24,396 nucleotides of DNA. Source: an uncultured Methanosarcinales archaeon. GTDB taxonomy: Archaea > Nanobdellota > Nanobdellia > Woesearchaeales > ARS49. The translations under genes were made by a program, and so were the position numbers. The stretch's first letter is position 1; each line of letters opens with the position of its first letter. Below are positions 887-10,184 of the stretch, in pieces. A model generated the notes under the pieces. That model did no database searches, was not told where the DNA came from, and was given only the letters and a program-made list of their open reading frames with translations. Location: assembly GCA_964472615.1 (NCBI GenBank), contig CAYYLN010000002.1, positions 1-24,396 on the forward strand. The letters run 5' to 3'.

Positions 887-1664
887 TTAAACTTTTACTT
901 GCTTCCACGCGCAGAACGCACACGTTTCAAGTGCCTTCGGTGGGTCCTTCCTATCCAGCACGAGCTTTGCTTCTTTCAGCAAGGTCATGGCACGCGCAGG
1001 ATTTGTCTTGAGCTCGATAACGGTCGTGTCAAACGGAATGCCTTTATGCAGTTCTCCTGGCTGCGGATAATAATAGACCAGGAACGCGCGCTTGTCTGTC
1101 GGGAAGTTATTCTTCTCAAGCAAGAACTTGTAAATATCCATCTGCACTTTATAGCTCTCATGTGTTTCTTTTGGCGCGCTTGCTCGCGTCTTATGGTCGA
1201 GCGGTGCGAACACGCCTTTCTTCAACTCAAGACAATCATCAAGCAATCCCCTGAGCAGCAATCCAGTCCCCGCATCTTCATATGTCGGAAACCCCTTGCG
1301 CGGAAACCACTGGCTTCAGCCTGTTGGAGGAAGCGCGGGGTTTCCGAACATGCTCAAGAACCACTTGCCATTTGGCAGCACATTGCTTATTATTCACGCC
1401 ACTTGCTTTAGCAAGTGGTTCTTGACACTTGAGCGTCTTTGGCCGAGGAAACGCCAGCTTTCCTGGCACCTTTCCCTTCCACAACGATGGCATCTCCCCT
1501 TTCTCGCGAAACGCATCACAATATTTCTTCAGCACCGAATCAAGCTCAATCGCAATACTCGCCATCGGCCCCGCAGGCCTGCCGATACCTTTCACCATCT
1601 TCATCCAGAAACAGCGAGGGCGTGCACGGGGGAGATGGGGGGTGGAGGGGGTTACGTGGGTCGT
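887..1664 (-). pseudogene. PD-(D/E)XK (RecB/Cas4-like) nuclease, ~210 aa, interrupted by a 145-bp insertion
   Basis: N-half (PRCFWMKMVKGIGRP...PRPKTLK, 1664-1428) and C-half (YEDAGTGLLLRGLLDDCLE...LDHKT...QMDIY...CAFC, 1282-887) join in frame when 1282..1426 is removed. D...DxK, QxxxY and terminal CxxC match this family. The start codon is unclear (ACG at 1664 where ATG is expected). Confidence 0.8.
1282..1426 (+). mobile_element. 145-bp non-autonomous IS200/IS605-type hairpin element (MITE/PATE-like), copy 1
   Basis: 143/145 identical to 8934..9078. Preceded by TTCAT (1277-1281), ends TTGAC, no target duplication. Subterminal hairpins GGC-TTCA-GCC and CCACTTGC-TTTA-GCAAGTGG. The boundary is ambiguous by 1 nt (1283..1427 gives the same empty site). 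Confidence 0.8.
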
Positions 1665-7995: not shown

Positions 7996-8933
7996 CGGGC
8001 GCACAAATACGCATGCAGTATTCGGAGACCATCCTCGAGCGATGTGTGCGGCTTCCAGCCCAAGAGCTTCTCTGCCTTGCTCACGTCCGCATACGTCTGT
8101 GAGACATCGCCCTCTCGCCGCGGCTGGGGATTTCTGATAGCATTCTTACCCACGATTTTTTCAAGCGTCTCAATGAATACGTTGAGCTCCACCGGGCTTG
8201 AGTTACCAAGATTGATGATCTCAAACCGCAGATCAGCGTCCGTAGCAGCAAGCACTCCTTCCACGATGTCGTCGATGAACGTGTAATCCCTGCGGCTCGC
8301 GCCATCGCCGTACACCTCAATCGGTTCGCTACGCATAATGCTCCGCATGAATTTGTACGGCGCCATGTCCGGCCGGCCGCGAGGACCATACACGGTGAAG
8401 AACCGCAAGCACGTCGCAGGCAAACCGAATTTTGCATAGGTCCAACACCAGAGTTCTCCCAAGCGCTTTGTCACACCATAGGGGCTGATTTGCGTGTCCG
8501 CAGGGTCAGTCTCGCGGAATGGAACTTCAGCGCGTTCACCATAGACTGAAGAGCTCGAAGCAAAGATGAAATTCTTGACGTTCGACTTCTGGGCAAGATC
8601 AAGCAGAATGGCGGTTCCCGTGACATTCCCATCATAATAGAGCTTGGGATTCTTGAGCGAAGGACGCACTCCTGCGCGCGCAGCAAGATGGATGACTTTG
8701 TCCGGTTGTTCTTTCGTGAAGGTGCATTGCATCCCGGCTTCATGCGTAATATCCGCCTCGCAGAGATCAAACGACCTATGGCCTACTATTCCTGCAATGT
8801 TGTCACGCTTGATGCGAGGATCATAATAGTCATTGAAGTTGTCGACCCCGACAACGCAATCGCCGCGCTTCAGCAACGCCTCACAGACGTGGCTGCCGAT
8901 GAATCCCGCAGCACCAGTCACGAGGTATTTCAT
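7992..8933 (-). CDS. NAD-dependent NDP-sugar epimerase/dehydratase (UDP-glucuronate 4-epimerase/WcaG-like SDR)
   Basis: VTGAAGFIGSH, HLAARAGVRPS, ASSSSVYG, YGVTK, LRFFTVYGPRGRPDMA, RDYTFIDDIVEG. Confidence 0.93.
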   Translation of the reverse strand: MKYLVTGAAGFIGSHVCEALLKRGDCVVGVDNFNDYYDPRIKRDNIAGIVGHRSFDLCEADITHEAGMQCTFTKEQPDKVIHLAARAGVRPSLKNPKLYYDGNVTGTAILLDLAQKSNVKNFIFASSSSVYGERAEVPFRETDPADTQISPYGVTKRLGELWCWTYAKFGLPATCLRFFTVYGPRGRPDMAPYKFMRSIMRSEPIEVYGDGASRRDYTFIDDIVEGVLAATDADLRFEIINLGNSSPVELNVFIETLEKIVGKNAIRNPQPRREGDVSQTYADVSKAEKLLGWKPHTSLEDGLRILHAYLCAR

Positions 8934-9078
8934 GTGTCGGAAACCCCTTGCGCGGAAACCACTGGCTTCAGCCTGTTGGAGGAAGCGCGGGGTTTCCGAA
9001 CATGCTCAAGAACCACTTGCCATTTGGCAGCACATTGCTTATTATTCATGCCACTTGCTTTAGCAAGTGGTTCTTGAC
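8934..9078 (+). mobile_element. 145-bp non-autonomous IS200/IS605-type hairpin element, copy 2
   Basis: Differs from 1282..1426 only at the first base and at 9049 (T vs C). Preceded by TTCAT (8929-8933, includes the epimerase start codon), ends TTGAC. Confidence 0.8.
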
Positions 9079-9100
9079 ACATGCGCAAGAATATCTGATT

Positions 9101-9109
9101 CTTATAAAG
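9101..9109 (-). promoter_or_regulatory. Probable TATA box of the epimerase gene, displaced by the insertion
   Basis: TTTATAAG on the minus strand lies ~27 nt from ATG 8933 once the 145-bp element is removed, the same spacing as other promoters in the window. Confidence 0.55.
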
Positions 9110-9227
9110 ATGCGCCATCGCTACGGAAGCTTTATAAACTTCCTGCGGATTTCGCCGAGTAACTTTTGGGGCAGCGCCAACTGCAGTCGGCTGGTCCCAA
9201 AATGCTTACATTTTGGGGTGATTAACC

Positions 9228-9449
9228 TTGGAATCAAGACCATTAGATGCGCTCAATCGCGCTCGGGATAAGAAAGTCATGGTGGAGCTGAAGAACGGCA
9301 AGCAGTTCATCGGCTTGCTCCGCGCATTCGACATCCACATCAATTGCGTGCTCGATGACACTGAAGAACGCGTGGAAGGCAACGTGACGAGAAAGCTCGG
9401 CACCACATTCCTCCGCGGAGACATGATCGTCCTCATCTCACCGCAGTAA
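9228..9449 (+). CDS. lsm: Sm-like (Lsm/SmAP1) RNA-binding protein (73 aa)
   Basis: RPLDAL...VELKNG...GLLRAFDIHINCVL (Sm1) and TFLRGDMIVLISP (Sm2). TTG start after GGGGTGA. Adjacent to rpL37e as is usual in archaea. Confidence 0.95.
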   Translation: MESRPLDALNRARDKKVMVELKNGKQFIGLLRAFDIHINCVLDDTEERVEGNVTRKLGTTFLRGDMIVLISPQ

Positions 9450-9514: not shown

Positions 9515-9676
9515 TTGAAAGGAACCTATTCGATGGGCAAGAGGAGCCGCGGCAGGTCGCACATCATGTGCAGACGCTGCGGCAGGCATAGTTACAATGC
9601 CGCGAAAAAGGTATGCGCGAGCTGCGGCTTCGGCAAGTCTGCCAAGCTGCGCAGCTACAAGTGGCAGACGTTCTAG
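9515..9676 (+). CDS. rpl37e: 50S ribosomal protein L37e (53 aa; not in the ORF track)
   Basis: Translated by hand: (TTG)[52 protein letters not shown]. CxxC...CxxC zinc finger, AAGGT upstream. Confidence 0.95.
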
Positions 9677-9972
9677 ATGTCGAAAACTGCTCTTGACGTA
9701 CCCTGCGGACTTTAGTCCGCCAGAAAGGACGAGCAGTTTTCGAGCATGACTTGACCAACGCTGCTGCGTTGTCATCTCGACAAGCAAAGCTTGTCGACGT
9801 CTCGCCAATCATTAGATTGGCGATGAACTTGAATAACTTTGTTATTCAAGTAACTTGAGAAACGCGGTTTCTCAAGTTCGTCGGAAATCAGCGGATTTCC
9901 GAGACTCAACAACCACGAGCAAATTTTGATGGCGTGTAGTCACGCCACTCGCTTTAGCGAGTGGTTGTTGAC
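9677..9972 (+). mobile_element. 296-bp composite hairpin element related to the 145-bp element, with an internal array of six hairpins
   Basis: Left module TGTCGAAAAC...GCGGAC-TTTA-GTCCGC...GTTTTCGAGCATG; right module TCAACAACCAC...CCACTCGC-TTTA-GCGAGTGGTTGTTGAC. Ends covary with the 145-bp copies. ATGTC occurs at 9677 and 9973. Confidence 0.6.
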
Positions 9973-10184
9973 ATGTCAAAAAGAATGCCTTGTTGTTCCT
10001 CACAATTGCCATTGCACTGGGCTTGCACATTCTCGCTCACCTCTGGCAGGTGTACGGACCAGAACAAGCACGCCTTTAATGGGGTGTTGGCCATAACGCA
10101 GTGCAAGCTTTGCATGCACTCTTCATCTGGTACGAGGCCAAGTAATTCTGCGCTACCTATATATAATAGCCAATTATCCATCAT
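9954..10184 (-). CDS. Possible small Cys-containing protein; last codons contributed by the 296-bp element
   Basis: 76-codon ORF, start uncertain (10184 or 10115). Removing 9677..9972 gives ...ILFDI* with a TAG overlapping the rpL37e stop. Confidence 0.35.
   Translation of the reverse strand: MMDNWLLYIGSAELLGLVPDEECMQSLHCVMANTPLKACLFWSVHLPEVSENVQAQCNGNCEEQQGILFDMSTTTR

Follow-up and report, generated by a model that had tools for sequence, protein, structure and literature searches.

Insertion sequences of the IS200/IS605 family move by the 'peel-and-paste' transposition of the Y1 transposase TnpA (Barabas 2008; Guynet 2009). They insert 3' of a motif of 4-6 nt without target duplication, and palindrome-associated transposable elements (PATEs) are their transposase-free derivatives (PMC3119063). 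One such motif, TTCAT, is the target-adjacent motif (TAM) of ISGst5 (PMC10055086). The present analysis concerns a 145-nt non-autonomous element in the first 24,396 nt of contig CAYYLN010000002.1 (the window; C2:1-24396) from an uncultured archaeon of the Woesearchaeales (GenBank assembly GCA_964472615.1, here G000; 852 kb in 94 contigs, 92% complete), where one copy separates the start codon of a UDP-sugar 4-epimerase gene from its promoter. The element is likely to be a transposase-less mobile element of Woesearchaeota-type DPANN archaea with an IS200/IS605-derived, PATE-like anatomy, surviving at start codons that carry TTCAT.

The element shares with the PATEs of Haloquadratum walsbyi and other organisms a length too short to code, the lack of terminal inverted repeats and of target duplication, near-terminal palindromes of which the 5' one lies farther in, and a targeting sequence of 4-5 nt on the 5' side only, along with 'homogeneous' sub-families of >90% identity and other small repeats nested inside (PMC3119063). 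The ends of haloarchaeal PATEs recur in IS605/IS1341 transposons within the same genomes, whereas a transposon with matching ends was not found for this element, which is also far more modular, resides in DPANN genomes of 0.8-1.6 Mb, and occupies start-codon sites systematically, a habit unreported for PATEs. With IS608, ISDra2 and the ISGst elements it has in common insertion directly 3' of a short motif (TTAC, TTGAT, and TTCAT for ISGst5), scarless excision, and similar left and right hairpins, the right one ~10 nt from the end (PMC10055086). Those elements are autonomous, encoding tnpA with tnpB or iscB and using guide-to-motif pairing, whereas the present element lacks these genes, shows no recognised pairing, and alone possesses an extra long outer hairpin near its left end. 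The repetitive extragenic palindromic sequences and bacterial interspersed mosaic elements (REP/BIME, REPIN) that accompany RAYT genes likewise comprise short palindromic units in mosaics with many intergenic copies, thought to move as folded single strands via a Y1 HUH enzyme; REPs, however, cluster at gene 3' ends, carry a GTAG-type head and flank a single-copy RAYT, whereas this element has no RAYT, has distinct ends and lies at gene 5' ends. The pneumococcal BOX and RUP repeats and the Correia elements of Neisseria are small non-autonomous repeats, often located in 5' untranslated regions, co-transcribed, and altering expression or mRNA processing. The present element is similarly small, non-autonomous and positioned in predicted 5' untranslated regions, but these counterparts are bacterial, either of a type with terminal inverted repeats and target-site duplication (TA for Correia) or of unknown mechanism, and do not sit base-exactly at leaderless start codons.

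Duplication-free insertion at the epimerase start codon

The segment between the epimerase start codon and its promoter (copy 2, Table 1) is a mobile-element insertion made without target duplication. It recurs in the window in an unrelated context (copy 1), 144 of 145 positions being identical and the single difference being T at 9049 against C at 1397. Copy 1 interrupts a nuclease gene, of which the open reading frame (ORF) 887..1261 on the minus strand represents the C-terminal half. Joining the nuclease flanks across copy 1 yields a 176-aa protein whose best full-length homologue is 85% identical over 177 aa, and the DNA of this closest homologue (L041) contains the uninterrupted, empty site. 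Homologues read ...PKTLKWED... at the junction, and removal of 145 nt at copy 1 gives LK(Y/C)ED; the frame is restored only by removals of length 1 mod 3, a class that includes 145 nt but not 149 nt. The TTC of TTCAT at copy 1 corresponds to a conserved Glu codon of the nuclease gene, so TTCAT is host sequence. The right flanks of about 17 copies have nothing in common and contain no repeated flank sequence. The element itself is non-coding and packed with hairpins, beginning TGTCGGAAAC... and ending ...GTGGTTCTTGACA. A repeat boundary extending to 9086/1434 was rejected, the extra bases being a chance 4/6 match and the true ends being TGTC...GACA.

The epimerase protein begins MKYLVTGAAGFIGS, and its start codon is well defined by homology. 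Alignments to NCBIfam GalE-type models start at residue 1-3, that to TIGR01179 (GalE; E=1.4e-55) starts at residue 3, and protein homologues 310-321 aa long, several labelled UDP-glucuronate 4-epimerase by JGI, show coverage of 97-100%, identifying the ATG at 8933->8931 as the native start. On the plus strand this ATG reads CAT (8931-8933) within TTCAT, the reverse complement of ATGAA (Met plus the first two Lys bases). The initial annotation had described TTCAT in these terms and had wedged the element between the promoter and the ATG; both statements hold, with the element edge standing one base off the ATG. This intervening junction base is A in most copies and A, G, T or C across the family, and at copy 2 it is taken as host because this assignment yields the modal TATA spacing of 22 nt described below together with the frame-restoring 145-nt excision at copy 1. 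Both junctions of copy 1 and of copy 2 are supported by Logan contigs at ~5x depth.

Removal of the element restores a typical promoter geometry. The epimerase TATA box now lies 167 nt from the ATG, and virtual removal of 8935-9079 leaves the 21-nt host spacer plus base 8934, giving 22 nt from the TATA 8-mer to the ATG and a gene-strand junction, free of duplication, in which ...ATATTCTTGCGCATG directly precedes CATGAAATACCTC. Genome-wide, 64 of 198 TATA 8-mers (<=1 mismatch to TTTATAAA) lie 22-23 nt before an ATG, which is the mode, and this sharp peak is the signature of leaderless transcription. A restored spacing of ~27 nt had been proposed in the initial annotation; counted from the TATA centre to the ATG it is ~26.5 nt, equal to the 22 nt counted from the 8-mer. 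G000 genes with TATA spacing of this kind have C at base -1 in 49% of cases and T in 24%.

Table 1. Positions of the element copies and associated features in the window
Feature	Positions	Strand	Basis or remark
145-nt non-autonomous element, copy 2	8935..9079	+ (antisense to epimerase)	ends TGTC...GACA; 144/145 identical to copy 1
Element copy 1, interrupting PD-(D/E)XK (Cas4-like) nuclease gene	1283..1427	+	TTCAT at 1277-1281
UDP-sugar (glucuronate/glucose) 4-epimerase-type short-chain dehydrogenase/reductase gene, 313 aa	7992..8933	-	ATG 8933->8931; ORF and homologues
TTCAT, landing motif (TAM) 5' of element left end	8929..8933	+	6/6 type-I copies in this genome
Variable junction base, G at copy 2, probably epimerase host base -1	8934		copy comparison
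Left module: long hairpin TCGGAAACCCC...GGGGTTTCCGA around inner hairpin CCACTGGCTTCAGCCTGTTGG (8959-8979)	8937..8999	+	folds
Right module: long stem CTCAAGAACCACTTGC / GCAAGTGGTTCTTGA	9005..9077	+	folds; also in 299-nt relative 9677-9975
Shine-Dalgarno (SD)-like GGGGU, 9 nt upstream of AUG, inside hairpin stem	8943..8947	- (gene strand)	sequence
Host spacer between TATA box and element, 21 nt (presumed former spacer between TATA box and transcription start site)	9080..9100	-	sequence
Epimerase TATA box TTTATAAG	9108->9101 (9101..9108)	-	sequence and spacing statistics
299-nt modular relative (type II)	9677..9975	+	right module as in 145-nt element; left flank TTCTAG

The Lsm gene divergent from the epimerase (window 9131-9138 and 9214-9230) has a TATA box of its own, TTTATAAA, and a leader of ~65-85 nt. 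With TTG as its start codon and GGGGTGAT as its SD sequence, this leadered gene neighbours the presumably once leaderless epimerase gene.

Copies of the family and their association with start codons

A BLAST search of the assembly recovered six near-identical type-I copies, two on C2, two on C7 and one each on C84 and C13, each preceded by TTCAT. Three of them adjoin the ATGs of clear genes, encoding the epimerase, a diphthamide-synthase-type PP-loop protein and a PIN protein, and for the PP-loop and PIN targets the Pfam alignment begins at residue 1-4. A long-form copy (C7:7346-7542) lies where the stop and start codons of two genes in an operon overlap as ATGA, before a 56-aa membrane ORF that retains its ATG, while the upstream ORF extends 6 codons into the element (..KQVVSRTTR*). 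Another copy (C84:1527-1675) occupies an ATGAA within an intergenic host palindrome (GCAAATTGCATGAA ... TTCATGCAATTCGC), away from a gene start.

The element family is a mosaic of hairpin modules. The 299-nt relative exists in a second identical copy at C1:33165-33461, and its first base in the window directly follows the TAG stop of ribosomal protein L37e (9674-9677; ..TTCTAG followed by ATGTCGAAAAC). Its middle hairpin units (window 9749-9904) also occur alone or otherwise combined elsewhere in G000, at C14:14129-14234, C71:19-131, C72:1609-1766, C87:2059-2165 and C5:11058-11113, and a minimal two-hairpin version of ~70 nt is present at C73:1617.

For the wider family, 35 left ends were sampled by internal sequence alone from this genome, five relatives (G001, G004, G005, G014, G017) and ten metagenome contigs, the metagenome loci coming from a strict pattern scan that gave 10 clean loci. 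Left ends adjoin start codons in 25/35 cases (22/31 with orthologous sites merged), comprising 4/6 here, 11/19 in the five relatives and 10/10 on the metagenome contigs. TTCAT precedes 21 of the 35. Element matches are distributed patchily, from 0 to 20 per relative genome, and the targets in relatives are ORFs of 130-500 aa. Across the sample the targets include ribosomal protein S3Ae, a class-I Tyr/Trp-tRNA synthetase, NrdR, two Lrp/AsnC regulators, a PfkB kinase, a NUDIX protein, a GT4 glycosyltransferase and a PIN protein, with Pfam models aligning from residue 1-4 in several of them. Essential genes (S3Ae, tRNA synthetase) tolerate the element at their start. The link to surface-glycan synthesis proposed in the initial annotation finds no echo in this functional mix, which has no glycan theme. 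Its suggestion that the family repeatedly strikes leaderless gene starts fares better: besides the 25 start-adjacent cases, 14 start-adjacent copies from this genome, the relatives and the metagenome contigs have a TATA-like 8-mer 21-24 nt from the ATG once the element is virtually excised. Such TATA-spaced targets make up 55% of distinct cases, whereas the same loose criterion is satisfied by 30% of all ATG genes, a mild enrichment.

The genome contains 2345 TTCAT sites, which crude ORF-based gene calls made for this analysis assign to start codons (117, 5.0%), coding sequence (1949) and intergenic sequence (279, or 194 'free' sites once promoter cores and contig edges are left aside). Starts therefore represent 30-38% of non-coding TTCAT sites (0.295 with all intergenic sites, 0.376 with the free ones), which is the expectation if insertion is random over TTCAT and only non-coding insertions survive. 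Among distinct TTCAT-flanked copies, 16/18 lie at starts (binomial P = 2.6e-7 for an expectation of 0.295 and 1e-5 for 0.376), an enrichment exceeding motif frequency on either count. The targeted genes begin with ATGAA in 16/22 cases, compared with 15.7% of all ATG genes (P = 4e-9), bearing out the earlier proposal that an ATGAA-type target biases the family towards Met-Lys and Met-Asn starts. Two near-identical copies occupy TTCAT sites other than gene starts (copy 1 inside a gene and the intergenic C84 copy), and sister sub-families with left flanks TTGAT, TTAAT, GTGAT, TTNAC and TTCTAG have no member on a start codon. The ATGAA excess, the two non-start TTCAT copies and the off-start sister sub-families together indicate that landing is sequence-directed.

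Some genes are occupied in more than one genome. The same Lrp-type gene carries the element at its start in L025 (G014), L047 (G005) and L176 (metagenome), and the same PIN gene in G000 (C13) and L011 (G005), with homologous promoters in each set. The occupying copies bear the stem signature of their own genome, CCCC/GGGG, CTCC/GGAG or CCTCC/GGAGG, which points to re-insertion at a hot spot or to concerted evolution. Ancient retention of these orthologous insertions was considered and set aside as inseparable from re-insertion, the copies carrying genome-specific sub-family signatures. In runs X3 and X4, from an unrelated metagenome, comparison with window 8928-9016 gave the left half of the element at a summed contig depth of ~250-300, indicating that the family is abundant in other environments.

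Hairpin anatomy, predicted leader and mode of movement

On either strand the element folds into two long hairpins (z = -7.3 and -7.7 vs shuffles). Only 2 nt (TG) separate the start of the outer left hairpin from the left end, whereas the inner left hairpin CCACTGGCTTCAGCC.. begins 24 nt in; at the other side, 9 nt lie between the right hairpin CCACTTGCTTTAGCAAGTGG and the element end, corresponding to an alternative fold of the right module as a local hairpin CCACTTGC-TTTA-GCAAGTGG (9051-9070). The inner left and right hairpins agree at 12 of their first 14 bases. An invariant 8-bp foot, TCGGAAAC/GTTTCCGA, is common to many otherwise different hairpins, and stem positions 9-11 beside it covary over 29 distinct copies (C:G/T:A/G:C; 25-29/29 paired), the compensatory changes indicating that the hairpins are under constraint. 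The wobble tally (G:T vs A:C, 37 vs 34) does not distinguish the folding strand. An Rfam search of the element at the gathering threshold and at E<=1 returned only sub-threshold noise. An archaeal bulge-helix-bulge intron was also considered; fold inspection revealed no such motif, the folds being two independent hairpins, and the element ends pair with each other or with AUGA over only ~3-4 bp.

This anatomy agrees with that of PATEs on several points. Removal of 145 nt at copy 1 is scarless and the ~17 copies with comparable flanks show no duplication; the motif is confined to the left flank, the right flanks being unrelated; and the sub-terminal hairpins resemble each other, the left one lying farther in, while only 4 nt (TGTC/GACA) are inverted at the ends. 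By analogy, the element appears to work like an IS200/IS605-type element and is classed here as PATE-like with a putative moving enzyme. The inner left and right hairpins would serve as the enzyme-binding hairpins, and transposition would proceed as single-strand 'peel-and-paste' by a Y1 transposase acting in trans.

The landing site TTCAT(N) is the reverse complement of (N)ATGAA and would thus offer a perfect site at every Met-Lys or Met-Asn gene start, where insertion would sever neither promoter nor coding sequence. In a compact genome (89% coding) with many leaderless genes and TATA boxes 22-23 nt before the ATG, copies sparing both would survive at starts and may even land there preferentially. 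The epimerase gene was probably leaderless once; its own TATA box would now initiate transcription on the first element bases, at approximately 9079-9078, and the mRNA would carry a leader of ~146 nt consisting of two long hairpins. The second of these (15 bp) would end 4 nt before the AUG and mask the SD-like GGGGU, through which the leader may influence translation.

The SD-like motif is GGAGU or GGAGGU in relatives. Its start lies 14 nt before the ATG, at the edge of the SD window, compared with the genome peak of SD-like motifs at 11-13 nt (motif start to ATG), which occurs before a subset of starts in G000. The gene-sense +1 frame ends on the UGA of AUGA and is stop-free in 17/30 copies, where shuffles would yield 3.5 and the other sense frames reach 1-2; copies off starts are equally open in this frame, and the openness is regarded as a curiosity and not as evidence. 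A conserved leader peptide was rejected, since the reading frame of the distal part varies from copy to copy. At the epimerase this frame (window 8930-9118, minus strand) crosses the element without a stop and ends on the TGA overlapping the epimerase ATG, and the one base by which copy 2 differs from copy 1 (9049) turns a GTG of the frame into an ATG.

A number of observations weigh against a PATE-like element that survives at TTCAT start codons. The Y1 transposase domain (PF01797) has no match in this genome, although with an assembly 92% complete in 94 contigs its absence is not proven, and PF07282 (TnpB-type) has none in this genome or in 8 relatives. PF01797 is matched in 3/8 element-bearing relatives, within an IS200-like unit of ~800 bp whose ends are unrelated to those of the element. 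Guide-to-motif pairing of the IS608 kind was limited on inspection to a possible GAA/TTC pairing, with nothing convincing at the right end, and the position of the outer left hairpin, 2 nt from the end, is unlike IS608. No empty epimerase allele and no joint bypassing the element were detected in Logan contigs at ~5x depth, and a search for RNA evidence turned up no RNA run containing the locus. Finally, motif plus coding avoidance predicts 30-38% of copies at starts, on a background resting on the crude gene calls, whereas 70-89% is observed, making the simple model incomplete. To account for the excess, selection must be stronger than assumed here, or start regions must be preferred in addition; the former is plausible because in so dense a genome almost any other intergenic position may hit a promoter or terminator. 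An empty site was also sought through an orthologous epimerase and not found, the nearest homologue being 61% identical and the genus relatives being without the gene.

The IS200-like unit was located at L038:1195-1991 (G001) and L039:1208-1992 (G017) and encodes a 155-aa Y1 transposase, the Y1 gene of G001 lying at L038:1501-1968. It is 82% identical between the two genera, with unrelated flanks, begins GCCAAGAGTTCGTCAGG... and ends in a hairpin plus ...CCCCTTATTTCAT, so that the tnpA strand of the unit carries TTCAT at the 3' terminus. It terminates ...TTATTTCAT (...TTTCAT), its ends being otherwise unlike the element.

Alternative explanations and biological meaning

The alternative that survives best, though we consider it unlikely, regards the family as a mobile 5' leader cassette for leaderless genes, controlling their expression and either aimed at the promoter/start junction, with integration coupled to leaderless starts, or positively retained there for a function that it supplies. 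Possible supplies would be the SD-like motif 9 nt from the AUG, masked by its hairpin, a regulatory hairpin, trimming of the transcript to an almost leaderless form, or a leader frame without stops that ends on the UGA of AUGA and permits re-initiation; since such elements excise without a scar, every copy would act as a switch by which expression could pass from leaderless to leadered and back. The start-codon excess above motif and coding avoidance speaks for a cassette, as do the metagenome copies, all ten at starts and some with flanks CTCAT, TCCAT and GTCAT that retain the start codon alone, the toleration before S3Ae and the Tyr/Trp-tRNA synthetase, and the mild enrichment of TATA-spaced targets. 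On the other side, 2/6 near-identical copies occupy non-start TTCAT sites, as a purely sequence-directed process predicts, and one start-adjacent copy lies in an ATGA overlap inside an operon, away from a promoter. The GGGGU/GGAGU/GGAGGU motif at -14 in all sub-families and the stop-free +1 frame would suit a cassette, but both are equally present off starts, the SD being buried in a 15-bp stem and the distal leader being read in different frames, which leaves no conserved peptide. The occupation of PIN and Lrp-type genes across different species or genera is similarly two-sided, since chance should give roughly one gene occupied in common for each pair of genomes, and the genome-specific signatures point to re-insertion.

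A further alternative, which we judge improbable, is a REP/BIME-like repeat, or a repeat whose mover is not an IS200/IS605 TnpA but a domesticated single-copy Y1 'RAYT'-type protein or some other HUH enzyme. The modular mosaic of left, optional middle and right hairpins, recombined or standing as lone units, does resemble BIME/BOX-type mosaics, many differing hairpins share the foot TCGGAAAC/GTTTCCGA, and an insertion sequence with matching ends was not found. However, this genome has no Y1 gene, nor do G004 and G005 with 12-14 copies each, and the Y1 genes of the relatives reside in the mobile IS200-like unit, not in a fixed REP-flanked locus. The distinct left and right ends with a one-sided flank motif fit IS200/IS605 better than REP doublets, and the copies are found mostly at gene 5' ends.

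A classical miniature inverted-repeat transposable element of the DDE-transposase kind, with TGTC/GACA inverted ends and a 4-bp CATG duplication, is highly improbable. It would account for the CATG on both sides of copy 2 (8931-8934, 9080-9083), the complementarity of the terminal 4 nt and the CAT after the right end of the C84 copy; the initial annotation had raised CATG as a duplication while doubting it, and the doubt was justified, as copy 1 and about 15 other copies with defined right ends are duplication-free and none shares it. A CATG duplication at copy 2 would moreover leave 18 nt between TATA box and ATG, off the 22-23 mode, the corresponding 149-nt removal leaves copy 1 out of frame, and inverted ends of 4 bp fall short of the 10 bp or more expected. 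An immobile conserved cis-regulatory leader RNA (riboswitch or operator-like) of a regulon, despite the position directly 5' of many genes, the strong structure and the covarying stems, can scarcely be reconciled with 99% identity between copies before unrelated genes, with a copy inside the nuclease gene and another in an intergenic host palindrome, or with targets that lack a functional theme, a patchy distribution within one genus (0 to 14 copies) and the lack of an Rfam family.

The preferred reading of a PATE-like element surviving at start codons bears on genome annotation and on archaeal gene expression. A full-text literature search, not aimed at start-codon landing, returned nothing on such repeats in Woesearchaeota, nor on Woesearchaeota together with leaderless genes. 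A widespread repeat, for which a published description was not found, is thereby added to DPANN genomes, which are usually thought poor in mobile DNA, and it accounts for long 'intergenic' hairpin arrays before genes and for broken contigs in these metagenome-assembled genomes. The landing motif of a transposon can decide where its copies survive in a streamlined genome, the ATG-AA mirror making start codons safe harbours. In many archaea mRNAs are leaderless by default. For the passage of genes from leaderless to leadered (SD-dependent) initiation the family offers dozens of natural, base-exact conversions, in which promoter and start codon are kept and ~90-200 nt of hairpins are placed between them, essential genes included.

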